A DNA stretch of 64,000 nucleotides from Pseudomonadota bacterium (GTDB lineage: Bacteria; Pseudomonadota; Gammaproteobacteria; Nevskiales; Nevskiaceae): contig JAZKEM010000040.1 in assembly GCA_040387055.1 (NCBI GenBank), forward strand, positions 6-64,005, given 5' to 3'. A model generated the notes under the pieces. It made no database searches and had not been told where the DNA came from. It worked only from the letters and a program-made list of their open reading frames with translations. Below, piece after piece: positions 8,254 through 48,462 of the stretch; position 1 is the first letter of the stretch, and each line of letters begins with the position of its first letter. The translations under genes and the position numbers were made by a program.

Positions 8254-8278
8254 TTCCGTTTGCTCCTTGCGCGTCGGG

Positions 8279-9360: not shown

Positions 9361-9430
9361 TAGCGACCCAGCCATTTGCGCTTTGCCTTGGCTTGTCGTG
9401 CACGACGGATATCGCGGCGCTTCATGCGGC

Positions 9431-9885: not shown

Positions 9886-9928
9886 CCTGCAGCGACACAG
9901 ATAAGAAATAGGCGAAGACCTGGCGTCA

Positions 9929-31900: not shown

Positions 31901-34900
31901 ACTCGGATACCGTTTCGACCGCATCGCTATGAATCGAAATCAGGTCGTCTCCGTTATCCAAAGCGGCCGTGATTCGATCACTCAGTTGGGAGGCTTGCTC
32001 CGTGATGCTTGGGGAAAACTGCCCATCGTTCATCGTGTCAGAACCAGCGTCCAGCATGTCGCGCAAGATGATTAGCGAGGCGCGTGCTTGCGTTTCTCCG
32101 GCGATGTTGGCTTTGGTGCGCTCAGCGAGGTCGGACTCATCAACTAAGTCGGTTTGCTTTTGCTGGTTCGAGAAGAGACCGCCATCGATATCAGCGGGTA
32201 CATCTTTGGTGCCGTTGCGCTGCGCATCCTTGGCGCGCTGGGCATCTGCAAGGGCCTGCTCCTTAACTGGAGCTGCCCCAAATAAATCTACTTGGCCGCT
32301 GGAGCCTTGGCCTTCGCTGTTGGCTTCTGAATGTTGGCGGCTGCCTTGGCTTTGCGATCCTTCGCGTACGCCACTCCCGCTGCGTAGAGTTTCTGCACTC
32401 TGGTTTTGCTTTGATTCTGTGCCATTAACAATTTCCTCCAGTGCTCGGCGATAACCCGCATCGTCGTCCTGATGACGAATAGCGGCCTCTTCTGTCGCGT
32501 CAGCGTCAATATCATGCGCTTGTGCCGTAAGCGCTGCAATCTGCAAATCATCTTCATTGCTGGCATCCGCCCCAGCGGCTTCGAGGTGGTCGGCCAATGT
32601 CGGGTCGAACGGATCTACGCTGTTCGCAGCATCAAAGGCGGCATCTTCAGCGCGGCCGCTGTCGACAAAATCGAGCATCCATTGGATGGCGCGCTTCTCT
32701 GACGCGGTCAGTGGCTTGCCATCCAGTGCTTTGGTTACTGCTTGGCGGACACCGTAGTCGCTGCCTGGCAACTTCACGCCACGCGCAAACTCGGCGAACC
32801 AAGGCGCATGCGGCACCCAAGTCGTGCGGCCGCTGACTTCGTTGTCGGGCCCGCGAAGAATTCTGCCACCGACTGTTGCCCAGCCAGCTTCGTTGGCCAT
32901 TTCTCGCAGCTTGTCGTGGTACGACTGATCCTTGAGGCGTGCATCGTCAGACGGCGTGAGTTTCTTGCCGTTCTGTACTGGTGACTTCTGTGCCTGAGTG
33001 GTCGCGGCTTTGCCCTTTACCTTCTCTTTTGGTTCAGGACGAGTCGAAAACGGAAGACCAAATGCTTTCTCTACTTCGTGTGCATCCTTGAAGGTTGGTG
33101 GAAAGTCGTTGCTGTCGAGGTCCGGGTCTGGATTATTTTCAGCGACGGGGCGAGTGGCGCGTTTAAATCCGGATCCTCCCTCCCATTCACCGACCTTGAA
33201 CTGTTTGCCCTTCCAGTCGTCATCAAGACCGATTGCGCTCGGATCTAGCAGGGTGCGAATCTGACCTTTTCCTTTGCTATCGTGCGCAGGCAATCCGACA
33301 CGCTTACGCGTTTCATTGAAAATGTTTTCACGCCACGATTCATCGTTGAGCGTTTTCTGAGCGGTCAGAACTTCTTTCAGGAACTTATGATCTTTCGCTT
33401 TAGTTGGTCCATCGACGGTGTCGTTGTACCACTGGTTCAGTGCCTCTGGCAGTGCTTCATCAAATGCAGTGCGGCTGGATGCTGCTTTCTGCACTTCAGG
33501 ATTTGACGCCGCGAACTCGTGCGCTGCCTTGGTTAGGTCAGCCGCCTTGCGCACATCCTGGCCTTTGCTTGCGCTCGATTCGTCCTTCGTCGAACTGGGG
33601 AATTCCTTAACCAGCGGCAACAGATCCTTGATCGGAGAATCAAGGCGAATCACCTTCACAGGTTCTTTGCTGTCGGCTTTGGCCAGCCACTGATGATGAC
33701 CATCGACTACATGGTTGTCAGATGAAATCAGGATTGAACGATCACCGCCCTCAAAGTTTTTAGCTTTCTCTACCTTGGAGGGGGAGTATTCAGCCTGCGT
33801 TGCCTTGAGCGTTTCCGGCGCAACCTCTTCCTGTTCGTGGCTGATGCCGCGACCTTTAAGGAAGTTGACCAGCGCGCCGCGGTGCTCAGCTTTGACCTGT
33901 GGCATTTCTGCACGAGGCACGCCAAGCGTTCCAGACTCTTTCGCGAACTGCTTGAACTCGGGTTCGTCAGAATTTACATCTGACCGATTGCCTGTTCCTT
34001 CGCTGGCGGGAACGACCGGCGCTTTTTCTTGGGCGCTGGCTTGCTGTCCTTCGCCGGTGGAAATGGCGGCTTCTTGTTGCTGTTGGTTTTGCTGGGGAAC
34101 ATTGGCTTTTACCTCGTTGCTGATTGGTGCTGCGTTCGGGCGCAGCACAAAACCACCCTCGACAGGATGAATGGTGTGCGTTTCTTTCTGACCACCTTTT
34201 GCGCGCGCGCCAGTGGCTGCGATCTTGGTGGGGAATGGCGAGCCATCTGGACGGCTAATATCGCTGGCGATCAGTGGATTAGGCTGCTGGGACTTGGTGA
34301 CTCCCACAGATGCAGGCGCTGCATTGCCTGATCCAGTTCGGGCGGCATCATCGCCAATTCGTTGTGCGGTGTTTCGCAGCTCAGCTTGTGAATTTGCCGC
34401 GCCTGTCGACGCGTTATCACTCTGTCGCCCATTGCCTGCCGGAGCCACTTTGGAAGCATTGATTTGTTCGCCATTCACTGCCTCCTTGCGTGCAAGCACG
34501 AACTGACCTTTCTCGACGCGACTAACAGCGAACTGATCGCCGTCATCCATCTTCTTGAGAAATGCACTCGCACCGAGATAGCTTTTCCAAGGCTGGTTAT
34601 CCTTTGGATTGCGGACTTCGCTGGGTGGAGCTTTGATGCCGGTAGGGCGACCGCTGATTAAGTCGGCTTCTGCGCGCTGCTGTTGTGCGCTCGCGTTTTC
34701 AGCGAAGGTCGCGCGGCGAGCAGCACCATCAGGGCCCACAACCATGTCACGAGCTGGAGCAGGTAACGCAAGTTGCGCCTGTACACCGGGCATCTGGCCA
34801 GCATCTTCCGCTTGCACGGTGCCGACTTCGATGCCTTCGGCAGTTGGCTGCTTAAAGCGATCACCGCTATCCAAGGTGATATTGCTGGATGGGACTTCGC

Positions 34901-36077
34901 TTACTTCAATGCCGCGTGCAGATGGCAGAGTCGCATCATCGAAAGCTGATTCGACATTGGCTTGCGCCGTTGCGTCATCGGCCTCTCGCTTCTGAAGATC
35001 GGTGAATTCTTTCTGCAGCGATTTGGCTTTGCCCGGCGATTGCTCAACCTTTTCATTGAGCGCTGCATCTTGGCGAGCTTGCTGCTGATCACCCACGGCA
35101 GCCGCGGCATCAGGATTAAGGCCAACTGCTTTCGTCAGTGCGCCAGCACCAGGCTGCTGCGCAGCTTGTGCAACGTCGGCAATGTCTGCATTGCGCTGCG
35201 CTGCGATTGGATCAACTTTGTTTTGCTTTTCGCGTGGCGTGAAACCGGAAGCGGCACCACCAAACACACCGCCACCGATGCCACCAGCAAGGCCCGACAT
35301 AACGTAGTCGTTAGTTGCATCGTCGCCGGTTAGTTCTTGGCCAGCGCCGTAACGCTCGAGTCCAGTCTGTGCGACTTCTGTAACGCCTTCGCCTGCAGCC
35401 GACTTCAGCGCTTCCTTGCCCATGTGGGCAAGACGGCTTTCACCCGGGGCAAGATCGCGGCCCAGCATCTTCGCAAGGCCTTCTTCGGTGACTTTGCCAC
35501 CGGATTTGAGAATGTTCTTCGCAATGATTGCTTCAGGACCAAGCGCCAACTCGAGTGCGGTCGCTGGAAGCGCACCAGTCAGTGCGCGGCCCTTGTCATC
35601 AATGCCTTCTTCATCTTGACCCTGACGGATGCCGCCATATTCCTGCGCGAACGTCGGGACCAATCCGCCAGCGATACCACCAAGGATTGCACCGCGACCG
35701 CCACCGATTCGTGAGCCAAGCTTTGCACCGGCAGCAACGCCGGCCATGTTGATACCAAGCTGCGGAGCCATTTCGGCAATCGCTTGCTTCGCGAACGTGC
35801 CCGGGTTGTCCTTGATGCCCTGAATGTCAGTGACGAGGGCAGGGTTACGCGCTGCAAGGTCTTCACCGTAGTGCTGAATGCCAGAGGCAATGCCGCCAAC
35901 ATCGGTGACGTCTTTGAGCGCACGTCCGGTCGAACCGATGACGTTGCCGACAGAGCGTTTGATTGATGTGCCGACGACACTAGGCTTTTCGTACCCGGCC
36001 GCAAACGGATCTGCGATCCCTTCGTTGTTCTCGCTTACTGCGCCGGAAACTTTGAAGGGATCGAAGATGTCAGCCAT
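22968..36077 (-). CDS. Giant multidomain 'polyvalent' virion-associated protein (4369 aa)
   Basis: Single uninterrupted ORF at the distal end of the virion operon. Recognisable modules are listed as separate features: ParB-like, C5-MTase-like, N6-MTase, HExxH zincin, ART-like, PRTase-like, and a PLxRFG plus TM C-terminal region. Confidence 0.9.
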   Translation of the reverse strand: MADIFDPFKVSGAVSENNEGIADPFAAGYEKPSVVGTSIKRSVGNVIGSTGRALKDVTDVGGIASGIQHYGEDLAARNPALVTDIQGIKDNPGTFAKQAIAEMAPQLGINMAGVAAGAKLGSRIGGGRGAILGGIAGGLVPTFAQEYGGIRQGQDEEGIDDKGRALTGALPATALELALGPEAIIAKNILKSGGKVTEEGLAKMLGRDLAPGESRLAHMGKEALKSAAGEGVTEVAQTGLERYGAGQELTGDDATNDYVMSGLAGGIGGGVFGGAASGFTPREKQNKVDPIAAQRNADIADVAQAAQQPGAGALTKAVGLNPDAAAAVGDQQQARQDAALNEKVEQSPGKAKSLQKEFTDLQKREADDATAQANVESAFDDATLPSARGIEVSEVPSSNITLDSGDRFKQPTAEGIEVGTVQAEDAGQMPGVQAQLALPAPARDMVVGPDGAARRATFAENASAQQQRAEADLISGRPTGIKAPPSEVRNPKDNQPWKSYLGASAFLKKMDDGDQFAVSRVEKGQFVLARKEAVNGEQINASKVAPAGNGRQSDNASTGAANSQAELRNTAQRIGDDAARTGSGNAAPASVGVTKSQQPNPLIASDISRPDGSPFPTKIAATGARAKGGQKETHTIHPVEGGFVLRPNAAPISNEVKANVPQQNQQQQEAAISTGEGQQASAQEKAPVVPASEGTGNRSDVNSDEPEFKQFAKESGTLGVPRAEMPQVKAEHRGALVNFLKGRGISHEQEEVAPETLKATQAEYSPSKVEKAKNFEGGDRSILISSDNHVVDGHHQWLAKADSKEPVKVIRLDSPIKDLLPLVKEFPSSTKDESSASKGQDVRKAADLTKAAHEFAASNPEVQKAASSRTAFDEALPEALNQWYNDTVDGPTKAKDHKFLKEVLTAQKTLNDESWRENIFNETRKRVGLPAHDSKGKGQIRTLLDPSAIGLDDDWKGKQFKVGEWEGGSGFKRATRPVAENNPDPDLDSNDFPPTFKDAHEVEKAFGLPFSTRPEPKEKVKGKAATTQAQKSPVQNGKKLTPSDDARLKDQSYHDKLREMANEAGWATVGGRILRGPDNEVSGRTTWVPHAPWFAEFARGVKLPGSDYGVRQAVTKALDGKPLTASEKRAIQWMLDFVDSGRAEDAAFDAANSVDPFDPTLADHLEAAGADASNEDDLQIAALTAQAHDIDADATEEAAIRHQDDDAGYRRALEEIVNGTESKQNQSAETLRSGSGVREGSQSQGSRQHSEANSEGQGSSGQVDLFGAAPVKEQALADAQRAKDAQRNGTKDVPADIDGGLFSNQQKQTDLVDESDLAERTKANIAGETQARASLIILRDMLDAGSDTMNDGQFSPSITEQASQLSDRITAALDNGDDLISIHSDAVETVSEWLKNDDAGEATNELRGILKALGASSIAPPATSANGEQSPTLKALQANLENLTTKRERMQTQHMQKYRDGSATRAQTTTYNARSSDLNEQIQEVRDQIRALESASNVKTAPEHNAYPTEGASEADLKKIAAEFSDAQESMINGDDQVTHVFDAPKKSEIVRLNDKVKVHVSKHGWMTPAEAKQKIKEWKQHAEKQGKENRSENSQKVVLSLFDLSGEWSKPWEEAGYQVYRFDIQDDAEVGDVTNFSADFFGDWFGDFEGQDIHAILAACPCTDFASSGARHFAAKDSDGRTVSSVKLVHQTLATIEYFKPAVWALENPVGRIESLGGLPPWRTSFDPYNFGDTYTKKTLLWGRFDGDMPIAPVEPVEGSKMHTQYGGKSQATKNARSVTPEGFAYAFFMANNAVDNPVQAVAGKYDRLDRSAIKDALDAGITPKEIDSIVEDFYYQDLDDDAANKALREAVEAKKPNEDPVEAKIEAAEKSGVVLNDSDKNAIRMAFKKADELQRKANGIVGRSSDPMNKGNAFPLGVGFTKMTKRKEQAIDSSVKKAGIAVGIYKQAESLEAQANSLLAGKGTSADIARRAEAKEKSKIEIVRKILNLKKGDKIAGMNVERVTFGAGKQPVSFTISGEGIVKGVHDKIDIAKTFFGGDRDELRKVVDQVRAETTETESNAAVETAPDSAFKTADETIAALRDGTATVEQYRSAFTALIDNVASVKAELAGKNKDALYDLIGGRGYGREYKKPELVDQVYQAFVRSFALGKEYGPTGYMMAPGALERHEAAKLKALTELVNGQSAESLAEYAADMKKKREEFASQRAARVESIKSPKTLEDFYAFMRFHTGEGKKHRDARLMLTPEQREAYDALSAEKSRSTRKVQKDESREIRVAGQKVDAEIIATKHTKKLHDLFVVRLGERVPREDYDTLNTAAKRMGGYYSSFRGAGAIAGFQFTDRPTAEAFVKLANGDATAANETAQTRRDAFQDDRSQTAVERLTEMADALEERADESLNADRKTNTNRRAAMASRAEANANASKALAKTMRNIAKAVESGKAKFLDRVRQKTQVELLTTTINTAKDDELRAKYDSYGEQLKHKGEPATSDTVEFATFPSFTMYRSDLASLARQLEDVDGLKLISTRLLKVADDVSDEYTKFAKANWEKVSPYTINDGKPAVIPTREAAETAIRRSGLLGKAIVMPLGRGKNAIVMSPSEAIGRGIWKGDGDKRISLVHEIGNEIVTKLKGRKDVPAPWQFVSASDKLKTLARMGIETPAEYRSALREFIGLREQAAEPDKIKQMERAMVGRRNDGLDFFPTPETTADEMVDAAGIEPGMRVLEPSAGMGHIADRIRAAGVEPDVVEMSGDRRELLEAKGFNVVGSDTMDLKPETAGQYDRIIMNPPFSDGRDMQHVRHAYDLLKPEGRLIAIMGEGAFFRDNKQAREFREWLESVGGTDEKLAEGTFEDPTLPVNTSVNARMVVIEKPAGETPEFRMSPSYNTVQQSTTAEVLKALNDKLGAAGVKSLMDRGILNIVQSADDLPSTMRAKMSSQIAGRVRGLYDGKAAYIVADNIEASEAISIVLHEIGEHYGLKQMLGADQYSKLLNDVRRMRAAGNPIVRSAWNRVERNYKNITPGSDRFVREVIAHVGESAEASSAPWFQRVMQAIRQFLWSKGFKFIKLDHNDLRAMVSASLRKAMAGMNAATAEAGQSLKESNIKQTDTPAFKKWFGASKVIDANGEPLIVYHGTDSDFDAFDKKRQREGRLGKGFYFTSSPEEAKVYGKNVIPVYLQIDRLYNGRTRETIGSGKTHGIEYSLTKGGGRVFLVQGSEQIKSASGNRGTFNPNDSRIDFSLKGKYGSDRADWNGFPPVHRMQPLGAAQKHADYVAAKAGDPAAAYRVAHDLLDDKKLEELSKALGDSSPTVVPVQSVEATGRNMLPRAYAELLGQKLGLPVDENIMQSVRAFHTNANAYERIASQPAFDGDVKKGGNYLIVDDTQTIGGTLANLRGHIEANGGHVILASALTGHESTADITLRPAMRDKLLAKHGAKLDDYLHENFGFGIDQLTQGEAGHLAAAPSLDAVRDRIAEGRRTLGLEDDQSADRSGQESGQVLGKDEPMYSLADARAPEAIGDIRQRIGDMLDNRRTFNRWWHETVGTQYHKAQVDKDYGRVYNRTQEYLTDVSRFALGAADLASDILPKFESFSDLTKSGASPRELKPVADAIFRGTLEDQKHYTESELRDRFNLNPKQIRLYQQARTAINKSLSDVAITDMVKLARPNISDAVAREAAAAGSMRAARNLLVNSAPALADDFDQKIGRVNQLISEGYAPLMRFGEYSLHVTDKAGETVYFSMFENAADRNRMERLMQEQYPDALIKSGVVNDETYQMFKGMTPETLELFAGVTGMDKDDAFQQYLKLAKNNRSALKRLIHRKGIEGYNPDLKRVLAQFITSNARAASSGLHMGEMTKAWEAIPKEKGDVQKQAGRLIQYIQNPREEAQGLRSFLFFNFLGGSVASAMVNMTQPVTMSMPYLSQWGAGSAAKELAAGMKIAMQRPEAISDAGLRAAMQRAIKDGTVEPHQIHELTAASMRSEGDWGKFDKARELGNKGLFIWGRMFSLAEQFNRRSTFAAAYQIGRKLSGEQLAAARATDAYDFAAKAVHETQGVYNRGNRPNWARGAVGATVFTFKQYSISYLEFVKRLPRKQQLMTLGVLVLSAGVNGFPGAEDLDDLIDTIAQGLGLSWNTKEERNKAISAVITPIFGQGATEFAQSGVSTFLPIDVAGRMGMGNLIPGTGIGLKSQNDKGREFAEAVGPIGGLAKNYGKSAADLLSGDISGAVKSAMPNALQNAINGYQMAQLGYARDDKGRRVIDTTTADAVSKAIGFNPRKVAVESRAVEIKRQDIDLNRATSSEIAEEWAQGIFEHDQDKVNKARAKLMRWNAKNPDSRILIAPSSIQQRVKQMTMTRAQRFIKSAPKGMRAEVSDALKDQ
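22971..25579 (-). other. C-terminal PLxRFG-type region with hydrophobic segments (aa ~3500-4369)
   Basis: APLMRFGEY is at aa 3710-3718 (PLMRFG core 24930..24947). Hydrophobic stretches are FLFFNFLGGSVASAMVNM and LMTLGVLVLSAGVNGF. Confidence 0.55.
25848..26294 (-). other. Phosphoribosyltransferase (PRTase)-like module (aa ~3262-3410, approximate)
   Basis: GGNYLIVDDTQTIGGTLANL matches the PRPP-binding loop pattern (hhhVDD..tTGgT). Confidence 0.6.
26433..26765 (-). other. ADP-ribosyltransferase-like module (aa ~3105-3215, approximate)
   Basis: LIVYHGTDSDFDAFD...GKGFYFTSSPEEAKVYG is an H...Y-type pattern, as in the polyvalent-protein ART clade. This call is from motif memory. Confidence 0.45.
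26898..27380 (-). other. Zincin-like metallopeptidase module (aa ~2900-3060, approximate)
   Basis: IVLHEIGEHYG contains HExxH (aa 2966-2970; 27165..27182 spans HEIGEH). Confidence 0.5.
27468..27995 (-). other. N6-adenine (amino) DNA methyltransferase domain (aa ~2695-2870, approximate)
   Basis: Motif I is RVLEPSAGMGHIA. Motif IV is IIMNPPFS. Confidence 0.75.
30693..31289 (-). other. DNA cytosine-C5 methyltransferase-like domain (aa ~1597-1795, approximate; compact)
   Basis: VVLSLFDLSGEWS resembles motif I, AACPCTDFASSG resembles motif IV (PC..FS), and WALENPVG resembles motif VI (ENV). Confidence 0.6.
33633..33935 (-). other. ParB/Srx-like nuclease domain within the giant ORF (aa ~715-815, approximate)
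   Basis: ...GGDRSILISSDNHVVDGHHQWLAK contains the DGHH(R/Q) signature of ParB N-terminal-like domains (DGHHQW = aa 792-797). Confidence 0.65.
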
Positions 36078-37625: not shown

Positions 37626-39503
37626 TTACGGCCCGCCAATAACCGGCGGTTCTCCTTCGCCACCGTCGACGCTGTAGCCGACAGAGAGCCCGTAGTTGTA
37701 ATCGGCAGAGGTCGATACGCCCATCGTTGCCGAAATGTTGAGTGCTGAAAGCGTGCCGACTGCGAGCTGTCCAGCGACTTGCGCGATACCTTTCTGCGCT
37801 TCAACAGCCAGCGACGCTGACCGTGCAGCACCTTCAGAAATGCCGCGCGCGTTCTCGATGGCGACACTGGCTTGCGCGCGTGAGGAATCTGTTTGAGCTG
37901 CATACGCGGCAATGGCAGAGCGAGTTGTGTCACTGACAGCGCCAGACTGCGCGACGTACATGCGGACCTTGCCGTCGTAGACAGATCCAAGAGTTTGGAT
38001 CTCCTGCGCCTTTGCTGAAATGCGCTCGCGCACTGCACTGAGACGCGCCTGATAGCCTTCGAGCTTCAGGCGTTCACCATCCATCTGCGTCTGAATCGGC
38101 TTCAGCGTTGCATCAATGGTGCTGCCGTACGCGCGCACACGTTCGGCATAAGCCGATACCGACGTTTTGTAAATGTCAGCCTTGGCATTCTGAGCGCGAA
38201 CCTTCTCGCCCCACGCCTGATACTCGGACGATTTAGCTTGTACCTGTGCTGAGAATCCTTCGATCTCTGCACGATACAAACCGACCTGGGCGGTCTTCAT
38301 GTCGACCTTGGCGCGCACTGCTTCAATGCGTGCCTTGAAGATGCCAATCTTTAGTTCTTGAGCACGGACACGCTCAGAATAAATCCGGATACGCTGCTCA
38401 TTCACATCGCCAACAAGCCGCATTGCTTCAAGCTTGCTGCGATAGATATTGAGCTTCTGATCGTTTTCCTGAAACTTCAGGCGGTGCAGCTCTACCTTGA
38501 CGTTAAAGCCCGAAATCTTCGCGTTGAACAGCGAAACTTCAGCGTTGAAATATTCAAGCGTCAGGCGAGCCGTAAGCTCTGCGGCCTGCATTCTGCGGGC
38601 AGACGACTGATTGAACAGATCAATGAGCTGACCTTCGAGCACCAAGCCTTGCTGCACAGCAGCGCGAAGATTCTCGGACTTCTGTTCGTGAATGCGAACC
38701 ATGATGTCGCGATTGATCGTGCTGACTGCATCTTGGTTGCGCTGGCGGACCTCATCGATGCGGCGATTAAGCTCGCCTTGAGGCATTGAGAATCCGCGTG
38801 CTGACCATTCTTCAGTGACTTCTTGCACAGCCTTGCGAGCGGTGATGTCTTCACGTGAACGCGCACGATCAAAGAGCGCCGTTTCAACTTCTGGCGGGAA
38901 TCCAGCCCCGCCGGAGAGCATCGACTGAATGGCATCTTTTGCGCTGGTCTGCAGTTGATACGGATTCTCGGTGTACGAGAAATTCACCGCAGGGACGCTG
39001 GCGGGTGCTAATGGAACAAGCCCGGTGAACGTCGGCACCGTGAGTATTGGTGCAGCCGGAATATTCAACGTCGTCAGCGACGGCGCAGTCAGCGATGCGA
39101 TGGCCGGCGCATTGGGGACATCGACGGTGTAGTCGATTGCAGGAGCACTCGGCGCTACGGCCGACAGGGCAGTCGGTGCACCTGAAAGGTCCAGCTCCGG
39201 CGCCAAGTCCGTGAATTCTGGTGCGTCAGGTAATGACGTGAAGATCGGAAGCGTTACAGCATCAGGATCCGTGATCGCATCGAATTCGACTTCTAAGTCT
39301 GGATCTTCCGGTGGTTCCGGCAGCGTGAAGTCGATGTCGAGTTCTGGGAATGTCGGGAGCGTTACAGTCGGCGCATCGGGCAAGGTAATGCCAGACAGCG
39401 TTACCAATGCCGTTTGTGCAGTGGAAAACGCCGAGGCTCCTAGGCCATAAAGCGTTTCGTAGCCGCCGTTGACGATTTCGCTGACATCTTCATAGATCGA
39501 CAT
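37626..39503 (-). CDS. Putative internal virion protein with long coiled-coil region (625 aa)
   Basis: The N-terminus has Pro/Ala/Thr-rich repeats (APSAPAIDYTVDVPNAPAIASLTAPS...). A ~350-aa heptad-rich helical region follows. Confidence 0.5.
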   Translation of the reverse strand: MSIYEDVSEIVNGGYETLYGLGASAFSTAQTALVTLSGITLPDAPTVTLPTFPELDIDFTLPEPPEDPDLEVEFDAITDPDAVTLPIFTSLPDAPEFTDLAPELDLSGAPTALSAVAPSAPAIDYTVDVPNAPAIASLTAPSLTTLNIPAAPILTVPTFTGLVPLAPASVPAVNFSYTENPYQLQTSAKDAIQSMLSGGAGFPPEVETALFDRARSREDITARKAVQEVTEEWSARGFSMPQGELNRRIDEVRQRNQDAVSTINRDIMVRIHEQKSENLRAAVQQGLVLEGQLIDLFNQSSARRMQAAELTARLTLEYFNAEVSLFNAKISGFNVKVELHRLKFQENDQKLNIYRSKLEAMRLVGDVNEQRIRIYSERVRAQELKIGIFKARIEAVRAKVDMKTAQVGLYRAEIEGFSAQVQAKSSEYQAWGEKVRAQNAKADIYKTSVSAYAERVRAYGSTIDATLKPIQTQMDGERLKLEGYQARLSAVRERISAKAQEIQTLGSVYDGKVRMYVAQSGAVSDTTRSAIAAYAAQTDSSRAQASVAIENARGISEGAARSASLAVEAQKGIAQVAGQLAVGTLSALNISATMGVSTSADYNYGLSVGYSVDGGEGEPPVIGGP

Positions 39504-42500
39504 TTATATTCTCCGGCTCAGTTCAAGCATCTGCAGATGGATGGCTTCGAACTCAAAGTCAGCGCCGTTCACGTTCATCAACTCAAATTGCCAGTGGCGT
39601 GATGCCAGGCCTTTCCCGAGATTTATCTTTGCTTCGGTGGCGGTTCCATTTACTGGCTTGTTACAGCGATACCAGTATTCGCTTCTTTCGCCTTCGTGCT
39701 CCACAGTAACTTTGAGCACCAAATCACCGTTTGCGGTGTAGCCGATGTGCGCCTCGAGTGGTCGTTTGATCTGTGCGGATCCAAAGTCCATGTCACCCGT
39801 GCGAATGCTGGCGGCAATCTCTGCGCCTTGGTCATCATCGCCTTCGAGCAGGAACAGACCAGCGTCAGAGACCGCGTAATAGCGATCACCCAAACGACAC
39901 ATCGAATCGAAGTTCCAATTCTGATATTCAGATGGAGCGCCAGATTCGGTATTGACCACCCAAGCTGCGTACGGCTGGCCTTCGATGAACAGCACTGCAT
40001 CAATGTTCGCGATATCGCTGATGGACAGTGACGCACGAAGCATTGCGCTGACTGAATCGTCGAGCTGCGGGTGATCGATCAGGAAAGCCGTCTTCGTCAT
40101 CTGCAGCGAGAGCAGTTGATCCAGCTCAGCCATGCTGAGAGCCGAAAGCTGCTGAATCATGCGCGTGACCATCGCGCTATCCGCATGGATCAAATCACCA
40201 AGCAGAAGGCCAAGGATCGTGCGTGTGTCGTCGCTTGCTTCGATGATTGACTGCAGCGACAGGACGCCGCCGGTATTCTCAATCAAGTACAGCGACAGGA
40301 TGCTTCCGACTGGCGTGCTGAATTCGTCGCTGTCTGTTGAAACAACAGCAAGATATCTTTCGCCAAAGGTAACAACGCACCTGCGCTGAACCGCGCCGCC
40401 CAAAAAGTCAGGCCGCTGGTCTGGAATGTCTTCTTTAGGCTGATACGTCTCGCCATCCACTAAGTAAATTACAAGCGCATTCTCGGGATCAGTGCTGAGC
40501 GCGGTGCCGGTGGCGAGATACGGGAACAACCGCGAGTAGCTGAGGCCACGATACTCGGCACCAGACGTCGGCCATGAATCATTTACCTTCGTGAAAGTGT
40601 CGCCATCACGTCGATACACGATGACATCCGGCAGTACGTTTGCTGGGTCAGACGGCAAATTCGAAACAGCAAGATAGTTGCCATCAGCCGACCATGTCGG
40701 GGTGACGACGTTGTCCAGCGAATCTGGGGCGATATCAGGATACAGCGCCGTAAAATCATCGCCATCTCGCTTGAAGATTGTCAGCTTGTCGGTGCCGTAA
40801 CCTCCTACCGCGAGGTAAGTGCCATCTGGGCTCCACGCATGCTCTGAAGCAAAATTCGGCGCAGTGTAGGACGGTGTTGGCAATTTATTGAATACATCGC
40901 CGGTTCTCTTGTAGACAAACAGGCTCGCTTCACTGTCATCAACTGTCGCAGATAAGTAAGTGCTATCAGGGCTCCACGCGAGTTCTGCGCAGTAGCTGGA
41001 TGCCTGAATATCAGGAGCATCAGGAAGGCGGATGAAGCTGTCGCCATCACGCTTGTAAATTGCGAGTCGAGTATCACCGCCACCAGAAACAGCCAGGTAA
41101 TTTCCGTCTGGGGAAATCTTTGCGTGATACAAATCATAGATCCCTACATCAGATGGAGCAGGGGACAGGCAATCTGCAAGCTCGACGAACGAATCAACAA
41201 CACGCTTAAACACGCGCACTGGCGGAACCGCGTTATTGACCGCAGTCACAAGGAAAGCATCGCCAGCGGCAAAGCTTGGCGGGCAGAATCCGTTTCCGGC
41301 GAATCCGCCAGTCGTAAAATCGGCGATGTGCGTTACAGGATTCGGTGAAGGCTCTGGTGGTTCTGGCTCTTCACCGAATGTGCGATAGAAACTCAGAATC
41401 GCTTGTGAATCGTTTTTCCATACAGCGCCAAATGCAGCTTGGCCAAACGCTGCGAAGGTATCGAAGATGCTACCGCTAGGACGCGTCTCAGGTAGTTCAC
41501 TTCTACGCACGAAACCATCATTGACGGTGTAGATGCCCAGAGTTTGCGACGAGTCTCCACCATTGAAGCCACTGGCAAATAATGGAAAGGCAGGAGAGAA
41601 GCTGGTCGTGCGGCCGCTGTTAGCTGCTTCTGGCGCTGGATCTCCGATGCGAGTGAAGTTGTCACCATCACGAGAGTAAACGAGCACCGGTGATGAGCCG
41701 CCAGAATTGCCGACAGCAACGTACACACCATCAGGACTCCACGAAGGGAATAATCCCGTGTATCCATCCGGCTGTTCATCAATCGTATCCAGCGCTTCAA
41801 AGTTATCGTCTGTGCGCTTGAGGATCGCAAGCCAATCAGCATCAACATCGCTATAGCCAGCTACTGCGAGGTAAACACCATCTGGGCTCCATGCCATATC
41901 CACTGCGACGGCATCGGCTGGATATGGCGGAATATCCAATTTCGTGAACGCATCATCAGTGCGTTTGAACACAATCAGGCTGCCGCCTGCATCAGCGCAC
42001 GAGGCTGCTAGATACGTGCCGTCTGGGCTCCAAGCTAAGCCACCGGAGTAGCTATACGTTGCGCTGACGTCAGGACCATCGATGCGATTGAAGAATGAAC
42101 CACTGCGCTTGTAGAGCAGTAGGCCGGTATCAGGCGAGCCGTCTTGAAGAGCTACAGCCAGATAGTTTCCGTCAGGGCTCAGTACTGCATTGACGAAAGA
42201 CGATGATGTGATCGAGTCGACTGGCGGATATAGCGAGTTAGCGATCGCGGTGTATGACGTCGCATTCTTTCTGAAGATCTTGACGTATGGTACTTCACCA
42301 ATGCCCAAAGCCACGAACTCATCATCATTCGAAAAGCTGGGCGGATAAAAGGTGTCTGCAGGAACATTGAAGTCGCGCAGATGCTCAATGAAGTATCCAG
42401 ACGGATCAGGTGCTGGCGCAACAAAAGCCGATCCCAGATCTTCCAGTGTCGGGGCCATTTGGCCAGCACCCAAGATCTCAGGCGAGACATTGCCGAGTGT

Positions 42501-43847
42501 CTTAAGTACTTGGCCGCCCGTTGAAATGGCCGCGACCACGCGTGCAAGCGTGGACTTCAGCGAACTCAGCGGGTTGAAGCGACCAGTGACGCCATCGAGA
42601 GTGCCGGAAATTCCTTCGCCACGCCAAGGGAAGTACAGCCATGAATAATTTGGACTGCCGCTGGGGTAGTTATAGAAGAAAATATTGACGAGCTTGTCAC
42701 TGCCACCCAAGCCGGGGCCATTATTGTTGACGAAACTCGTCGCCCCGAAATTGGTGGAAGGCGGTATGGTTGGAAATGACGTCAACGGGTTTGCAATCGC
42801 GGATATTGACGCGCCGTTCAGCTCATAGAGCTTCACGATTTCACCAATCACGGGACTGCCGCTGACACCTGTTTCAGCTTTGGTTGTCAGTAGCAGCGTA
42901 TTTGAAACAAAATGTGCGCTTAACTTATAGGCTGATGTAAACGCGCCGCCAGGCGTGCCGATATCCGTGAACGTATCGCCCACTCTGCGAATGACTGTCC
43001 AGCCCACGAGCGTAGTGCTGGTGTTGTTGTTCTTGGCAGTGACCAGATAATTGCTGTCAGGGCTCCACTCCATAAACCGATTCGGGAGGGAGCCAGTCGT
43101 GTTGACGTTGATACTGGTCAGTAAGGTGAACGCTCCCCCATCAACCTTATAGATTCTGAGGTTGCCATCATTACGGACCGCCAAGTAATTCCCATCGGGC
43201 GACCACTCAACGGAAAGGCTGTTGCTGTAGGCCGAGAGTCCGGAGAGGTTAATGAATGGGACATACGTGTCGCCGCTTTTCGCGTAGATCGGCACGTACG
43301 GAACAGCATATCTTGCGAAGGCGAGGTACTGCCCGTTTGGGCTTAGTTCCGCAGACAAAGTTGAAGCCAGCGTAAGCTCTTGAGTCAGCGATACGATGTC
43401 ATCATCGATGATTTTATAAAAGTAGAACTTACTGGTGTTGCCGTTGTAAACCAGAAATGAATGTTCTACCTGGCTCCAAACTGCGTCAGTGACGTAATCA
43501 ACAGGAAGATCGCTTGGCGGGTCCAGTTGTACAAACGTATCGTCGGTGCGCTTGAAAACAGTCAGCTTCGGACTGTTGTTGTAGTTGAAAATTAAAAGAT
43601 ACAGCCCGTCAGCACTCCATCGGCAAGTCAGAGAATCTTGCGTGATGAACGAGGCACCTAGATTTGAGAACTGATACAGGTTGCCGATCAGTTCATCATA
43701 AGTGGCGGTCAATCCGTTCCACTTATAGACGGAAACAACATACACGCTACCTGTGTAGCTGAGCTTTGTTGCGTAGAGCCCATCAGAAGTCGCACCGTTG
43801 TTCACCGCGACCGGCGATTCTCCAGCTTTGAAAAGCTGAATTGCCAC
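39504..43847 (-). CDS. Virion-operon protein with three tandem beta-propeller (PD40/TolB-like repeat) modules and a distinct C-terminal domain (1447 aa)
   Basis: There are twelve copies of [WLI]S[PA][DN][GS].Y[LV] followed ~20 aa later by (F/Y)(K/R)R.(D/G)D.F, arranged 4+4+4 (aa 77-300, 556-735, 911-1085). A Pro-rich linker GEEPEPPEPSPNP separates modules 2 and 3. Confidence 0.8.
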   Translation of the reverse strand: MAIQLFKAGESPVAVNNGATSDGLYATKLSYTGSVYVVSVYKWNGLTATYDELIGNLYQFSNLGASFITQDSLTCRWSADGLYLLIFNYNNSPKLTVFKRTDDTFVQLDPPSDLPVDYVTDAVWSQVEHSFLVYNGNTSKFYFYKIIDDDIVSLTQELTLASTLSAELSPNGQYLAFARYAVPYVPIYAKSGDTYVPFINLSGLSAYSNSLSVEWSPDGNYLAVRNDGNLRIYKVDGGAFTLLTSINVNTTGSLPNRFMEWSPDSNYLVTAKNNNTSTTLVGWTVIRRVGDTFTDIGTPGGAFTSAYKLSAHFVSNTLLLTTKAETGVSGSPVIGEIVKLYELNGASISAIANPLTSFPTIPPSTNFGATSFVNNNGPGLGGSDKLVNIFFYNYPSGSPNYSWLYFPWRGEGISGTLDGVTGRFNPLSSLKSTLARVVAAISTGGQVLKTLGNVSPEILGAGQMAPTLEDLGSAFVAPAPDPSGYFIEHLRDFNVPADTFYPPSFSNDDEFVALGIGEVPYVKIFRKNATSYTAIANSLYPPVDSITSSSFVNAVLSPDGNYLAVALQDGSPDTGLLLYKRSGSFFNRIDGPDVSATYSYSGGLAWSPDGTYLAASCADAGGSLIVFKRTDDAFTKLDIPPYPADAVAVDMAWSPDGVYLAVAGYSDVDADWLAILKRTDDNFEALDTIDEQPDGYTGLFPSWSPDGVYVAVGNSGGSSPVLVYSRDGDNFTRIGDPAPEAANSGRTTSFSPAFPLFASGFNGGDSSQTLGIYTVNDGFVRRSELPETRPSGSIFDTFAAFGQAAFGAVWKNDSQAILSFYRTFGEEPEPPEPSPNPVTHIADFTTGGFAGNGFCPPSFAAGDAFLVTAVNNAVPPVRVFKRVVDSFVELADCLSPAPSDVGIYDLYHAKISPDGNYLAVSGGGDTRLAIYKRDGDSFIRLPDAPDIQASSYCAELAWSPDSTYLSATVDDSEASLFVYKRTGDVFNKLPTPSYTAPNFASEHAWSPDGTYLAVGGYGTDKLTIFKRDGDDFTALYPDIAPDSLDNVVTPTWSADGNYLAVSNLPSDPANVLPDVIVYRRDGDTFTKVNDSWPTSGAEYRGLSYSRLFPYLATGTALSTDPENALVIYLVDGETYQPKEDIPDQRPDFLGGAVQRRCVVTFGERYLAVVSTDSDEFSTPVGSILSLYLIENTGGVLSLQSIIEASDDTRTILGLLLGDLIHADSAMVTRMIQQLSALSMAELDQLLSLQMTKTAFLIDHPQLDDSVSAMLRASLSISDIANIDAVLFIEGQPYAAWVVNTESGAPSEYQNWNFDSMCRLGDRYYAVSDAGLFLLEGDDDQGAEIAASIRTGDMDFGSAQIKRPLEAHIGYTANGDLVLKVTVEHEGERSEYWYRCNKPVNGTATEAKINLGKGLASRHWQFELMNVNGADFEFEAIHLQMLELSRRI

Positions 43848-43850
43848 GGC

Positions 43851-44261
43851 TTACGGGTTTCCTTCCGTCAGTGCTGCGGTAGCGATTGCAACGGTGTTGC
43901 CGGAAAGGATGTTGATGCTGATCAGCTCAATGTCGGCGCCAGAGCCAGCAGGACCAACTACGAGATCCATGACAAAGTTGCCAGCGGAATCTTGAACGCG
44001 TGCCCAGGTGGCAGTGCCGTTCGCTGCGCCAACACCGCTCGCGATTGCATTGAAGCTGAGTACGCCATCTGCAGCAGCAGGAGCACTTGGATCTGCAAAG
44101 GTCAGCGTTGCAAGCAGCGTCTGCGTTGTGATGGCAGCGCCAGCAGCAGGCTTCGGGACGGTGTAGAACTTCAGCGTGCCAGCACCGGAACCAGCATCAA
44201 TGGCTGCAGCGATTGGATTGAGCCGCGCATTGCGCAGGGCCGTGGACATGGAAATAGACAT
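43851..44261 (-). CDS. Small conserved virion-associated protein (136 aa, start MSISMSTAL)
   Basis: GGAG lies 7 nt upstream of the ATG at 44261. The overall pattern resembles 63304..63735 and a common podophage small-protein family. Confidence 0.55.
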   Translation of the reverse strand: MSISMSTALRNARLNPIAAAIDAGSGAGTLKFYTVPKPAAGAAITTQTLLATLTFADPSAPAAADGVLSFNAIASGVGAANGTATWARVQDSAGNFVMDLVVGPAGSGADIELISINILSGNTVAIATAALTEGNP

Positions 44262-44328
44262 TGGTGTCTCCGATAGGCTTACACGGTCGATGATGTCTCC
44301 CGCGCAGCACACCCATCCACAACCGGCA

Positions 44329-45891
44329 CTATTTCTTTTTGCCTTCCTCGGGCTCGAATACGGCGAGGGCGCGAATGACGCTTGTTCCCAGCTCCACATC
44401 ATCATCCGGGTTGTAGTCATCTTCAGTCAGCTTGATGGCTGTTTTGATATTCCAGCCAATCGCGCCACCGCCTTCAGATGCAGGCTTGTGAATGAAGAGT
44501 GTTGGGATCAAGTCGTACTCTTCCTCGAGTTCAGTGAGGCTGAACGTCGCTACTTGCCCTTCAGAGCGAATGACACGGGTGCCATCAATCAGCGGAACAG
44601 AGTGTTGACCGACTCTTAATCCACCGATGCCGTTTACCGGGTAGTTCAGGTACGCATTGGGCGAGCCAGCGTTAAAGCATCTGACGCCCCACATGGCCCG
44701 GCCTGAATCATTCACGGAAAGCCAGTCATTGAAGAAGAACGTCCCTCCAGAAACCAGCATGTTGCGTCCGGTCTGGCCAAATCCATTGACCGATGCAACG
44801 GCAGTGAGTGGTTCATAGCCATCCCAAGGCGACGTCGTGAATCCCGCCGGCGCATCAAGCGTTCCGCCGCCCAGAGGAAAGGTGATCGCATCCGTCGTAT
44901 AACCCGGAATGCCGCCACTGCCGACGGGCTTCGCAGGCACTTTATGCTCAAGTGGGGTCGTGCCGTCTTCATCGAGCTTGGTGACGATGGATCCAAACCC
45001 AAAGCACGACAACAACTGTTTGCCGTCTTCGCTGATAACAGGGTCGAGTACTCGCGGCTGTCGCGCTTCACCGAAGGATGCTGACTCGCAATCCCACTCC
45101 CACGTGCCGACATCAGTGGGCGCGTCGCTTGGATCGGTGTACGTGTACGACTTGACCGAGAATCGGTGAATGGTCCCGTCAATGACCAAATGCTTTCTAT
45201 AAAACAAAGGCAGCTTCGGATGATGATTGCGACTACCGACAGTGCTTCGTGCATACGATTGCACTTGCTCCCCTGTGAAATACGATATCGAGCCGTCAGT
45301 CGAGTCGTACAGCGCTGAATCAATGCTGGCGATGACGTACTTGTTCGCATCTTGCGTAGCGTAGAAATCGTTGAATCCTGTCCATGATGGATCCCAGCCA
45401 GGCACGAACGCATCTTCACGAATCAGCTTGAGTTGTCCTGTCTTTGGATCTGCCTTGAAGACAAGAATCGCGGTCTCGCACAAAACTACGATCTGGTTGC
45501 CATGGCCGAAGTTATCGACTCGCAGCGGTGCGTAGTCGAGAGTGAATGGCATCCCTGCAATCGGTGTTGCAGCATCACTGCCGCGCTTGATCTTCCAGCC
45601 CATCGCCCGGTGTTCACCGTAGTAGGTGAATCCACCGAAGAGATAGACGAAGTACCAGCCATCGGTTTCGATCTGTACGACGTTACGGACATCAATCTCA
45701 ACAATCCGCACGTCGCCGTAGTAGCGAGTGCGGATCACTGTTCCGTCTTCAAACTTCCATGTCTTCGCGCCCCGCGATTGGCCAAGATAGGCCTCAGTGC
45801 GACCAAGAAGAGTGCGCGCTATCGACAACCGTTGCGATGCAATCTTCTCGTCGCCCTGATACCTGAAGTGGATCGGGGCAGTGACACGCAT
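44329..45891 (-). CDS. Putative tail/virion structural protein (520 aa)
   Basis: Long ORF in the virion operon with TAATG-type coupling to the upstream gene. No motif recognised. Confidence 0.6.
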   Translation of the reverse strand: MRVTAPIHFRYQGDEKIASQRLSIARTLLGRTEAYLGQSRGAKTWKFEDGTVIRTRYYGDVRIVEIDVRNVVQIETDGWYFVYLFGGFTYYGEHRAMGWKIKRGSDAATPIAGMPFTLDYAPLRVDNFGHGNQIVVLCETAILVFKADPKTGQLKLIREDAFVPGWDPSWTGFNDFYATQDANKYVIASIDSALYDSTDGSISYFTGEQVQSYARSTVGSRNHHPKLPLFYRKHLVIDGTIHRFSVKSYTYTDPSDAPTDVGTWEWDCESASFGEARQPRVLDPVISEDGKQLLSCFGFGSIVTKLDEDGTTPLEHKVPAKPVGSGGIPGYTTDAITFPLGGGTLDAPAGFTTSPWDGYEPLTAVASVNGFGQTGRNMLVSGGTFFFNDWLSVNDSGRAMWGVRCFNAGSPNAYLNYPVNGIGGLRVGQHSVPLIDGTRVIRSEGQVATFSLTELEEEYDLIPTLFIHKPASEGGGAIGWNIKTAIKLTEDDYNPDDDVELGTSVIRALAVFEPEEGKKK

Positions 45892-46490
45892 TACGTCGAG
45901 GTCAGACCGATCTCATAGCCGACGTTGAGATTGTCGGTCGGCTCGTAGTCGCGCTTATTCTGGAAGCGTGCGGCTGCGAGCAGAATGCCAGTGGATCCGC
46001 CTTTTTCGCTGGACGAAATGATCGCGCCGCCGTACACCGACCCGACTTCATTCATCGTGTATGCCGCCTCGTTGGTGAGGTTGGACGACACGCCATCGAT
46101 TGCATCGCCTACCAGAAAGGATGGGCGGTCTGCTTCGTCATAGTCGGTAATCTCAGTGGCAACCGCGGCAAAGTTCGCAGCGGTCCACGTATCACCTTGC
46201 GGAGTGACGTCCCCAGAGAACAGCGCCATGTACCAATCTGTGATCTGCGATTCGTTGTGCAGCACCACGTTCAGCATGTGATTGCGACCTTCGCGAACCA
46301 CCGTGTTCGGATGCAGGCTGACAGGGCCGCCATTGCACGAAAGCGAGAATACGCCGCGCAACGCGATGCGCTCCTTTGGAAGGAACAGGCCGCCGTCTGC
46401 CATCTGTTCGTATCGATTCTGGAGCAGTTTGCGAATCAGCGAGGCTTTGACGCGCGCGGAGAGTTTGTTAAAAGTAGTTTCGATGCTCAT
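45891..46490 (-). CDS. Putative virion structural protein (199 aa)
   Basis: Operon context only. Confidence 0.55.
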   Translation of the reverse strand: MSIETTFNKLSARVKASLIRKLLQNRYEQMADGGLFLPKERIALRGVFSLSCNGGPVSLHPNTVVREGRNHMLNVVLHNESQITDWYMALFSGDVTPQGDTWTAANFAAVATEITDYDEADRPSFLVGDAIDGVSSNLTNEAAYTMNEVGSVYGGAIISSSEKGGSTGILLAAARFQNKRDYEPTDNLNVGYEIGLTST

Positions 46491-46500: not shown

Positions 46501-47799
46501 TTAAACAGCTACGCCGTTGCGAATGACTTTGAGGGTGATGGCATCACGCGCAGCGAGCGGAGAACCGTTGTCGCCGCCACGAAACACGCTGATGAGTTGT
46601 TGGAGCTGGTCTTGCTCGCGCAGGAGCAATGAACCGGAAGAGAATTTGGGAAGAGCCAGGCGCCCTTTGGTGATTGGTGTGATAACGCCACTCGCACCGC
46701 CGCGCATCAACACGCCGTTGTTCGACCACCAGACGGCAGCCTTCTCATTGGGTGGAAGCTTCAAGCCGAACGTGACGCCACGTGTGTCTTGCAGGGTGTT
46801 TTCGACTACACCGAACGCATCAACGGGTAGTTGCTGCATGTCCTTGGGATCATTGCCGCCAAGGAAATACGCACCGCGCTGAGTGCCCACATAGATCCCG
46901 TCGTCAACAGCAGCGACGCCCGTGATGCGATGTGGGAAGCGGAAATAGGTTTGGTGAATCCTGAACTGGCCGTAACGCAAGGCCAGTGTGTAATACAGCG
47001 TGTCGCCAATCGCGAAGTAGATGCGGCCGCGATAGCTGCACAAGAATGACGACGCAGGAATCTTGTCGCAGAACTGTGTGTCTAGCAGCTTGCCCATCTG
47101 AGCGATGTGCGAGCGATCAATCGTGAAGCTGGTAATGCCGTACGGGATGCGTGCAACGTGATACAGCGCTTCGCCGTTTGGTGGCGAGCAATAAATATTG
47201 ATGGCGTGATCAGGCGCAGTCTGTGGAATCGTGCTCAGCGTGATTCCGCCGTCGGCCGACACAGCAACAACGGCTGCACGACCGGTGCCAGACTCTTCGC
47301 CGCTTGGTGCAACTGCCGTGATGGCTACTTGATAACGTCCAGCATCAAGGCCCCAGCCAGTAGTCGCAGAGAGGGCAGGCTGACCGCCCGGGCTATCAAC
47401 GCCCCAAGATTGCAGCGCACCCAAGCGATCGATGCGTGCGGTGGTGAGACCGTTGGACGCATAGATCGAGTTATTCATTTCGCAGTAACGCCAGCGATTG
47501 CTAGAAACAACCTGCATCAGCGGGGTTAATGACTCGAAGCCGTCGACCAGTTCGAATCGCGTGAGGCTATTTTCATAGACCATCAGTGCAAACGACCAAT
47601 CTTCAGCAGCCCAAAGACTGTGTCCGCTGCCTGATTGAATTGATTGATATCCATTGCGGCGACGTGGCTTGCCACTCACTGGAATATCGACGTTCACGGC
47701 ACTGCGAAGAGCCCGGGCTGACTGCAGCTCCTTCAGGTTCTTCACGTTGTTTACGCCGGATGGCCAGCTCGTTAAATCAACTGGATTGCGCGTGGCCAT
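46501..47799 (-). CDS. Putative tail/virion structural protein (432 aa)
   Basis: Operon context only. Confidence 0.6.
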   Translation of the reverse strand: MATRNPVDLTSWPSGVNNVKNLKELQSARALRSAVNVDIPVSGKPRRRNGYQSIQSGSGHSLWAAEDWSFALMVYENSLTRFELVDGFESLTPLMQVVSSNRWRYCEMNNSIYASNGLTTARIDRLGALQSWGVDSPGGQPALSATTGWGLDAGRYQVAITAVAPSGEESGTGRAAVVAVSADGGITLSTIPQTAPDHAINIYCSPPNGEALYHVARIPYGITSFTIDRSHIAQMGKLLDTQFCDKIPASSFLCSYRGRIYFAIGDTLYYTLALRYGQFRIHQTYFRFPHRITGVAAVDDGIYVGTQRGAYFLGGNDPKDMQQLPVDAFGVVENTLQDTRGVTFGLKLPPNEKAAVWWSNNGVLMRGGASGVITPITKGRLALPKFSSGSLLLREQDQLQQLISVFRGGDNGSPLAARDAITLKVIRNGVAV

Positions 47800-47802: not shown

Positions 47803-48462
47803 TCACCAGATCGGTTTGCAGACGGGCACCTTCTTCAGGCGACGTGTGCGCTGATGATTTGCGGTCGGTCGTTCACCAAAGATTGCCGTGAAGCGTGCTT
47901 CGTGATCATTAGCGCGAGGCTTGTCCTGCGAATCTGAATCACGACGCATGAAGCAAAGATGTGCAGCCCATTCAATTAAGTGAATTTGGAAGCGCTCTGG
48001 AATCTCGGGTTCGTCATCGGCAGCATCCATCGGCTCCAGAGGGAGACGATAGACAGCCAGCATTAGACTTGTATTGACGGTCGGTGTCGGATGGACGCCG
48101 AGATAATCAATCTCGTCATAGAAGAAACGCGGCTGACCTTTGCAGCTTGGCCAGCGTCCGTCGTATTCAGCATCGAGTGTTTCGATACTGGTGCGGCTTA
48201 GAGAACGACGCTCACCCGATATCAGGCCATACACACGCTGAACGTGGGTGATGAGCGGATCAAGCTCTACTTCGTTTTCGTTTGCTGCGACGGTGACTTT
48301 GGTAATGATCGAATCTTTGTCAGGGATGAGGCGTGCACGGATGCACGCCTCTACCTGTGCTTCATTCAGATATGCCGTGAGCTTGTCGTCTTGCCATAGG
48401 TAAGGCTTCGCGACGTCATCAAGAATGACGCGCAGCCCACCAATGATGTCCTTAAGCTTCAC
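47803..48462 (-). CDS. Putative head-tail adaptor/head-completion protein (219 aa)
   Basis: Its position is downstream of the capsid genes. The N-terminal ...PYLWQDDKLTAYLNEAQVEACIRA pattern resembles adaptor proteins. Weak call. Confidence 0.35.
   Translation of the reverse strand: MKLKDIIGGLRVILDDVAKPYLWQDDKLTAYLNEAQVEACIRARLIPDKDSIITKVTVAANENEVELDPLITHVQRVYGLISGERRSLSRTSIETLDAEYDGRWPSCKGQPRFFYDEIDYLGVHPTPTVNTSLMLAVYRLPLEPMDAADDEPEIPERFQIHLIEWAAHLCFMRRDSDSQDKPRANDHEARFTAIFGERPTANHQRTRRLKKVPVCKPIW

Follow-up and report, generated by a model that had tools for sequence, protein, structure and literature searches.

F116 and H66 represent a distinct podovirus tail homology group, in which the Hc3-type protein H66 gp54 is a homologue of tubular-tail-B (nozzle) and the giant protein is a homologue of T7 internal virion protein D (IVP-D) (Hardies et al., PMC4819975). 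F116/KPP25-type podoviruses include common prophages as well as candidates for therapy, and the proteins by which they recognize their hosts are poorly characterized. Between the Hc3 nozzle-type gene and a phrog_10969-type gene, KPP25 encodes gp06, whose family (phrog_26502 and phrog_12240, including H66 gp57 and an F116 homologue) is characterized by a C-terminal domain (C-domain) of helices followed by a jelly-roll. Here, we analyzed 64,000 nt of DNA from a member of the Pseudomonadota (Nevskiaceae; assembly GCA_040387055.1, contig JAZKEM010000040.1, positions 6 to 64,005), hereafter the window, which is a temperate F116/KPP25-type podovirus. At the gene position of gp06, flanked by homologues of gp08 and gp04, the window encodes a 1447-aa protein with a homologous C-domain. 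The N-terminal part comprises ~400 aa without a propeller in KPP25 gp06 and ~180 aa in H66 gp57, whereas in the window it comprises ~1190 aa and three propellers. We conclude with high confidence that the 1447-aa protein is a virion tail protein of the KPP25 gp06 family that bears three WD40-like propellers. We further lean, with modest confidence, towards a C-terminally anchored tail adhesin or receptor-binding protein whose propellers bind a host-surface structure. The parts of the gene are as follows; the nucleotide positions that a previous reading of the DNA without database searches (the sequence-only reading) had assigned to its modules are arithmetically right.

39504..43847, minus strand: tail protein gene, 1447 aa, with a GTG start and the stop codon at 39504-39506
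42783..43790, minus strand: propeller module M1, aa ~20-355, with clear blades at aa 77, 168, 215, and 261 and a marginal blade at 115-165
42363..42782, minus strand: M1-M2 linker, aa 356-495, rich in G, S, P, L, and N
41343..42362, minus strand: propeller module M2, aa 496-835, with blades at 497-548, 546-603, 597-649, 645-698, and 694-746
41304..41342, minus strand: Pro-rich M2-M3 linker, aa ~836-848, of the sequence EEPEPPEPSPNP
40278..41303, minus strand: propeller module M3, aa 849-1190, with six significant blades and one marginal blade, seven in all
39993..40277, minus strand: helical segment, aa ~1191-1285, with three predicted helices, where conservation with relatives begins
39507..39992, minus strand: conserved, family-defining C-terminal jelly-roll, aa ~1286-1447, modeled at a predicted local distance difference test score (pLDDT) >90

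Many relatives were found for only the last ~200-250 aa of the protein. The sequence-only reading had treated the last ~250 aa as an appendix; they are indeed non-repetitive, but they form the conserved virion domain that defines the family. An exhaustive search with aa 1190-1447 returned 6111 clusters at E<=1e-3. The domain was C-terminal in 150 of the 150 best hits, which are 171-1447 aa long, and in all but one of the relatives examined, and the end of the window protein (...LELSRRI) aligns with the C-terminal end of the family. The window protein is the longest among these 150 best representatives and the members from loci L001, L003, L004, L006-L017, and L023-L083. Invariant or near-invariant columns of the family include the motifs WV.NTE, Y.N..FNS, GDDD.G, KR, SRYWQFEL, GADF, and a terminal RR, which in the window protein read WVVNTE, Y.N..F.S, GDDD.G, KR, SR.WQFEL, GADF, and RR. 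The C-domain matched no Pfam family; its best PHROGs are phrog_26502 ("virion structural protein," E 5e-27) and phrog_12240 (E 3e-26), and the C-domain region is also shared by a PHROG family with the annotation amidase.

The C-domain also matched PDB chain 26gp_Q, with an E value of 5e-14 as a single sequence and 6e-33 as a family profile. This chain matches KPP25 gp06 from end to end, over all 620 residues, and KPP25 gp04, gp07, and gp08 were deposited together with gp06 (PDB 26la and 44nx), so that homologues of the 1447-aa protein and of two of its neighbours have been built together in solved virion structures. Within the family, presence in the virion is known only for the KPP25 homologue, from these PDB entries and the annotation "virion structural protein." The entries 26gp, 26la, 44nx, and 26fb are virion models of a phage identical to KPP25, with chains matching gp04, gp06, gp07, gp08, gp09, and gp15. 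A preprint on PhiXacm4-11, considered as a possible description of these entries, covers a T7-like phage and serves as an analogy for split nozzles only.

We scanned contigs for related loci with a small C-domain alignment, as a large one was too diverse for search patterns; a scan of contigs with the Hc3 protein alone gave no matches. Wherever both the Hc3-type and 625-aa-type genes were recognized, in 11 loci of bacterial genomes and 58 of IMG/VR, they lie on either side of the C-domain gene. The bacterial hosts include Halieaceae, Solimonas, Lysobacter, Variovorax, Acidovorax, Comamonas, Herminiimonas, Roseivirgaceae, Syntrophobacteraceae, and Thermodesulfobacteriota. VT2-Sakai, which Hardies et al. 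place in the F116 tail group, was considered as a carrier of the family and has no C-domain protein. Gene order bears out the placement of the 1447-aa gene in a virion operon, between tail genes and genes for internal proteins, as had been read from the sequence. The accompanying view that the protein is not a standard podovirus component holds for its exceptional triple-propeller load but not for the C-domain protein as such, which is standard and syntenic in F116/KPP25-type podoviruses.

What precedes the C-domain varies greatly among these loci. N-terminal parts range from none to about 1190 aa across the family, C-domain proteins of the IMG/VR loci measure 137-823 aa, and in 16 of 58 IMG/VR loci (L023-L080) the jelly-roll stands alone (137-184 aa), often with a large unrelated gene directly upstream. 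Each locus has zero to three such large unrelated genes around the C-domain gene. Pfam searches of 52 long family members identified WD40 (seven members), LamG (three), Sortilin/BNR (three), and PD40 (three) domains, as well as subtilase, discoidin, and SPRY domains in single members each; the variable neighbours in ten related loci had almost no Pfam matches. A repeat found in the protein P0013 was considered as a general stalk in front of the jelly-roll, and it is restricted to its own lineage. Because the C-domain is conserved across hosts of several phyla, it is unlikely to be the receptor-binding end, and because the N-terminal part is optional and made of binding or hydrolytic modules, it is likely the functional, exposed end. 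In a Solimonas marina prophage (L008, 7042-8468), a 188-aa C-domain open reading frame (ORF) overlaps the end of a 309-aa ORF, and this C-domain gene may be frameshifted or split; the genes of the 520-aa and 136-aa types come after the C-domain gene in this prophage rather than before it.

A motif scan of the 1447-aa protein detected 12 clear repeats of ~47 aa, (W)SPDG.YLAV ... (F/Y)KR.GD.F, starting at aa 77, 168, 215, and 261 (M1), 556, 606, 653, and 703 (M2), and 911, 958, 1005, and 1052 (M3). Each matches the unit profile built from these repeats with E values of 1e-19 to 1e-24, far beyond chance. The twelve repeats in a 4+4+4 arrangement that the sequence-only reading described are thus present, although they are the visible blades and not the full set: a broader profile that incorporates blades of related proteins found 15 significant blades (E<0.01) and a further two of marginal score (significant plus marginal: M1, 4+1; M2, 5; M3, 6+1). 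As each module spans ~350 aa, the repeat pattern suggests that all three are probably seven-bladed and that 4+4+4 is a visible subset. The four clear blades of M1 are non-contiguous and appear to be flanked by degenerate blades, and M2 has a degenerate tail after its five significant blades. M2 and M3, which lie on either side of the Pro-rich linker, are paralogous and colinear, as was previously noticed (41.5% identity over 301 aa, E 3e-60), and M1 and M3 share 34% identity over 235 aa (E 3e-16); M1 would be the older module, and M2 and M3 would stem from a later duplication. No relative was found for the 140-aa M1-M2 linker.

Pfam supports the propeller nature of the modules. The best match of the 1447-aa protein is the WD40-type propeller family PF23389 (71.9 bits), and PD40 (PF07676, 62.3 bits), WD40 (PF00400, 49.2 bits), Lactonase (PF10282, 37.7 bits), ANAPC4_WD40 (PF12894), and eIF2A (PF08662) also score above their cut-offs; propeller matches within M1 cover aa 66-278. 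Given that a WD40-type family is the best match, the repeats are, by sequence, WD40/PD40-like rather than strictly PD40, which narrows the original description of the modules as PD40-type. AlphaFold modeled aa 840-1447 at a mean pLDDT of 63.9 and the four blades in the centre of M3 at 70-90. Foldseek matched this partial model to seven-bladed propellers with a probability of 1.0 and E values of about 1e-6 (6igb, 6igq, 6tbl, 3fm0, and 4r40 are among the matches), which, with Pfam, supports the earlier reading of the modules as beta-propellers.

The best Foldseek match is the gluconolactonase PpgL, and an S9 peptidase propeller and CIAO1 also rank high. Together with the Lactonase hit in Pfam and the BNR/sialidase-like, subtilase, or amidase parts of other family members, this match would fit a virion-borne enzyme whose propellers have lactonase-type, sialidase-type, or other activity against surface polymers. 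We consider such an enzyme improbable: the matches reflect a generic propeller scaffold (15-22% identity), the scores of WD40-type families are higher, the analysis identified no catalytic residues, and three copies of one enzyme per chain would be unusual.

The sequence-only reading had also raised a decoy for Tol-Pal and an envelope-penetration device. Such a TolB mimic or penetration device would be ejected to the periplasm and engage Pal or TolA. TolB shares with the window protein a PD40-like repeat motif and the propeller fold, the PD40 family was matched, TolB structures are among the Foldseek matches, and the gene adjoins genes for internal or ejection proteins. However, TolB is not the preferred match, ranking only 20, 21, 24, and 48, behind lactonases, S9 peptidases, and WD40 proteins including CIAO1, and its N-terminal TolA-binding alpha/beta domain is absent from the 14 Pfam hits of the window protein. 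The TolB propeller is six-bladed, and the modules of the window protein look seven-bladed. Moreover, the context is a phage virion operon, the C-domain belongs to a protein that could be modeled in a cryo-EM structure, and the family carries many unrelated N-terminal modules. We found no evidence of envelope-penetrating activity and regard the TolB mimic as highly improbable; the decoy idea has no support, and TolB is one generic propeller match among many.

Metagenomic relatives (P0018 of locus L082, P0017 of L081, P0020, and L003) have the same blade motif (SPDG.YLA ... YKR.GD.F), C-domains that are 56-62% identical to that of the window protein, and the same gene order, yet instead of three fused propellers they have a single one or, in a gene of their own, two. 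The 68-kb contig L082 encodes a 765-aa protein with one fused propeller (8001-10298). Its capsid protein is 75% identical to that of the window, and the Hc3, 199-aa, 136-aa, and 625-aa proteins and the C-domain are 66%, 55%, 59%, 49%, and 56% identical, respectively, whereas the propellers are only 31-35% identical. The propeller region is thus among the fastest-diverging parts of the tail module, as emerged from the comparison of module variability that had been suggested previously. In L003 (3797-7251; Hc3 68% and C-domain 62% identical to the window), a separate 729-aa two-propeller protein is followed, with a 4-nt overlap, by a 422-aa C-domain protein (5983-7251). L081 (1-2199) encodes a fused propeller and C-domain protein of at least 732 aa that is cut by the contig end. 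Close relatives whose core genes are 44-75% identical therefore differ at exactly the 1447-aa gene, and they provide a natural series of one, two, and three propellers on the same anchor. In some of them, tandem copies of a 17-aa repeat, L..A.A.F.G.G...., lie between the propeller and the helical segment (seven copies at aa 251-369 of P0017, and aa 29-62 of P0008 from L003). The M1-M2 linker was considered as a carrier of this repeat; the repeat profile finds none in the 1447-aa protein.

In view of the two adjacent genes in L003, the window gene could be a propeller gene and a C-domain gene that an error of assembly or sequencing has merged. One frameshift does not suffice to account for the difference, because a ~180-aa N-terminal segment of the 422-aa L003 protein is missing from the window protein. 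Fused proteins also exist in L082 and L081, and an independent assembly (Logan) of a run from a watershed metagenome, the sole public run containing the gene sequence, is identical to it, with 0 differences. An artefact is consequently an explanation to which we assign almost no weight; the window protein is the product of the M2/M3 duplication and of gene fusion or fission. The Logan contigs placed on the region served as sequence confirmation only and provided no population variation. The ORF begins 3 nt past the upstream stop codon, with GGAAGGAAA just before it, its N-terminus (MAIQ) aligns with VAIE at the start of the orthologous L003 propeller gene, and the ATG of the next gene directly follows its stop in a tightly packed operon. 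The propeller modules differ little from the neighbouring genes in GC and GC3, with slightly lower values, and base composition is therefore unusable as a sign of recent transfer.

How the protein is attached is hinted at by its jelly-roll. AlphaFold, with an alignment of 104 sequences, predicted three helices at moderate confidence followed by the jelly-roll at high confidence. In the PDB, this model comes closest to gp59, the tail hub of Pseudomonas phage Pa223, and the HRP29 tail/nozzle protein, P22 gp10, and the PhiM1 nozzle are also matched. Among predicted viral structures, three family members are followed by many hubs annotated as "stabilization protein" or "P22 gp10" (E 1e-5 to 5e-4). 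The Pa223 hub consists of a propeller and an apical insertion domain that binds the adaptor. The modeled resemblance hints that the jelly-roll may be a tail-assembly domain, and it is a hint only because the resemblance is weak.

The same resemblance would suit a structural accessory of the tail tip or hub, in which the C-domain is part of the distal tail and the propellers are a bulky decoration or a stabilizing collar without receptor specificity. KPP25 gp06 is present as one chain per PDB entry beside other tail proteins, and the stand-alone jelly-rolls are likewise in keeping with such an accessory. This explanation seems unlikely, though less so than the enzyme or the TolB mimic: N-terminal modules in the family are typically ligand-binding or enzymatic, and propeller number and sequence change fast among close relatives, as expected for host interaction.

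A receptor-binding role, one of those proposed from the sequence alone, is the best-supported reading, if by no means a secure one. According to this reading, the C-terminal helices and jelly-roll would fix the protein to the distal tail, beside the nozzle-type protein and the products of neighbouring genes, and the three tandem propellers, a lineage-specific load that makes up the first ~1190 aa, would project outward from the tail and bind a host-surface structure. The polarity would be reversed relative to classical fibres, with a C-terminal anchor and a variable N-terminal binding part.

Several observations weigh against receptor binding. Because the usual role of WD40-like propellers is in contacts between proteins, those of the window protein could have a further protein of the virion as their ligand. 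The neighbouring 520-aa protein, with 31% identity to its L082 homologue and conservation in L003 (43%) of only its first ~265 aa, matches the propellers in its rate of divergence and could be the true receptor-binding protein. The AlphaFold model of aa 840-1447 contains no closed propeller, and its degenerate blades are disordered, as the alignment is shallow there. The matches of the jelly-roll to hub proteins are weak (PDB E 1e-3, template modeling (TM) score about 0.3), and carbohydrate-binding modules and Cry toxin domain III score almost as well as the hubs. H66 gp57 is not among the proteins marked as detected by mass spectrometry in the H66 record, and our literature search found no paper describing PDB 26gp, 26la, 44nx, and 26fb.

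Comparison with described tail proteins places the window protein outside the TolB, classical N-terminally anchored fibre, and tail-hub families, whose tested defining features it does not have. Tail hubs (P22 gp10, Pa223 gp59, and T7 gp12) also combine a propeller with a jelly-roll-type insertion domain and show a weak fold resemblance to the jelly-roll (Foldseek E 1e-3 to 1e-5). They have no sequence similarity to the window protein, however, their propellers are single, interrupted, and without WD40-type sequence repeats, and the window lineage has its own hub homologue, Hc3. Classical fibres and tailspikes (T7 gp17 and P22 gp9) likewise consist of modules, a conserved one that binds the virion and another that changes fast, but their conserved N-terminus and variable C-terminus are reversed in the family of the window protein. 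Propellers lie at the host interface in the receptor-binding proteins of staphylococcal phages (phi11 Gp45 and P68 gp17), where they are five-bladed platforms and not WD40-like arrays. The window protein is therefore unusual in its reversed conservation polarity, in the largest load seen here, and in its tandem WD40-like propeller array. Its kind of tail protein is not new, and it is an extreme form of that kind.

A broader idea, which we put forward tentatively and hold to be rather doubtful, is that F116/KPP25-type tails use the C-terminal jelly-roll as a general display socket, with reversed polarity and interchangeable N-terminal modules, and that recognition evolves through propeller number (one, two, or three) by duplication and by gene fusion or fission. 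If this were true and the protein were present in six copies, as are hub-associated proteins, 18 propellers would surround the tail tip, and the multivalent protein- or glycan-binding array would be without a described phage precedent. Were the jelly-roll a universal tail anchor for any N-terminal module, it would flag the gene for host interaction in thousands of uncultured phages and serve as a natural scaffold on which binding modules could be exchanged. With the triple propeller, WD40-like arrays would join the known receptor-binding folds of phages, and the relatives with one, two, or three propellers are a ready-made series for relating module number to adsorption.

The blade motif is shared by propeller proteins encoded in the tail-fibre regions of unrelated phages, after a collagen-like protein in Pseudomonas phage POR1 and after the tape measure protein and the next gene in Salicola phage CGphi29. 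The 61-65 kb, possibly viral contigs L019 and L020 (1-13160) encode, side by side, two giant WD40-repeat proteins that also have this blade motif and measure >2714 aa and 1719 aa.

The window encodes two tyrosine integrases, a CI-like repressor, RecE/RecT-like proteins, and replication initiators, as expected of a temperate phage. On the minus strand, the structural genes encode, in order, the small (TerS) and large (TerL) terminase subunits, portal, major capsid, SU10-type adaptor, Hc3, 199-aa, 520-aa, 136-aa, 1447-aa, 625-aa, 507-aa, and 4369-aa giant proteins, which is the order in KPP25 and H66. Megablast of the 20-kb structural region against GenBank phages gave no match, and there is therefore no close cultured relative at the DNA level. 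The genes around the 1447-aa gene are as follows.

47803..48462, minus strand: SU10-type head-to-tail adaptor, 219 aa (PF24175; PDB 26fb_T)
46501..47799, minus strand: "Hc3" nozzle/hub (tubular-tail-B) counterpart, 432 aa, matching PDB 26fb_K
45891..46490, minus strand: 199-aa protein, a KPP25 gp08 homologue (phrog_8123)
44329..45891, minus strand: 520-aa protein, a second receptor-binding candidate, with no Pfam or PHROG family match
43851..44261, minus strand: 136-aa virion protein (phrog_3758), at the same position as KPP25 gp07
37626..39503, minus strand: 625-aa helical protein (phrog_10969), partly homologous to KPP25 gp04, which is found with gp06 in PDB 26la and 44nx
22968-36077, minus strand: 4369-aa giant protein with DarB-like antirestriction, DNA methyltransferase, and helicase-type PHROG matches

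The giant protein corresponds to H66 gp60, a homologue of T7 IVP-D fused to intracellular enzymes. For the 136-aa protein, an automatic 189-aa ORF (43851-44420, minus strand) overlaps the upstream gene, and since the alignment with relatives starts no earlier than residue 54, the true gene probably spans 43851-44261. Its product is colinear with KPP25 gp07, with a non-significant BLASTP match (E 2.7), and it matches a 141-aa chain, present in four copies, of the tail-fibre model 9RKV from the Agrobacterium myovirus 7-7-1 (E 1.2e-8). Judged from its size and copy number, this chain is probably the "garland" protein that binds the distal fibres. Elsewhere in the window, two back-to-back tyrosine integrase genes (3429-4472, plus strand, and 4691-5680, minus strand) adjoin a replication-initiator gene (2231-3232), and the region 2231-5680 could be the end of the prophage against a second, small mobile element.

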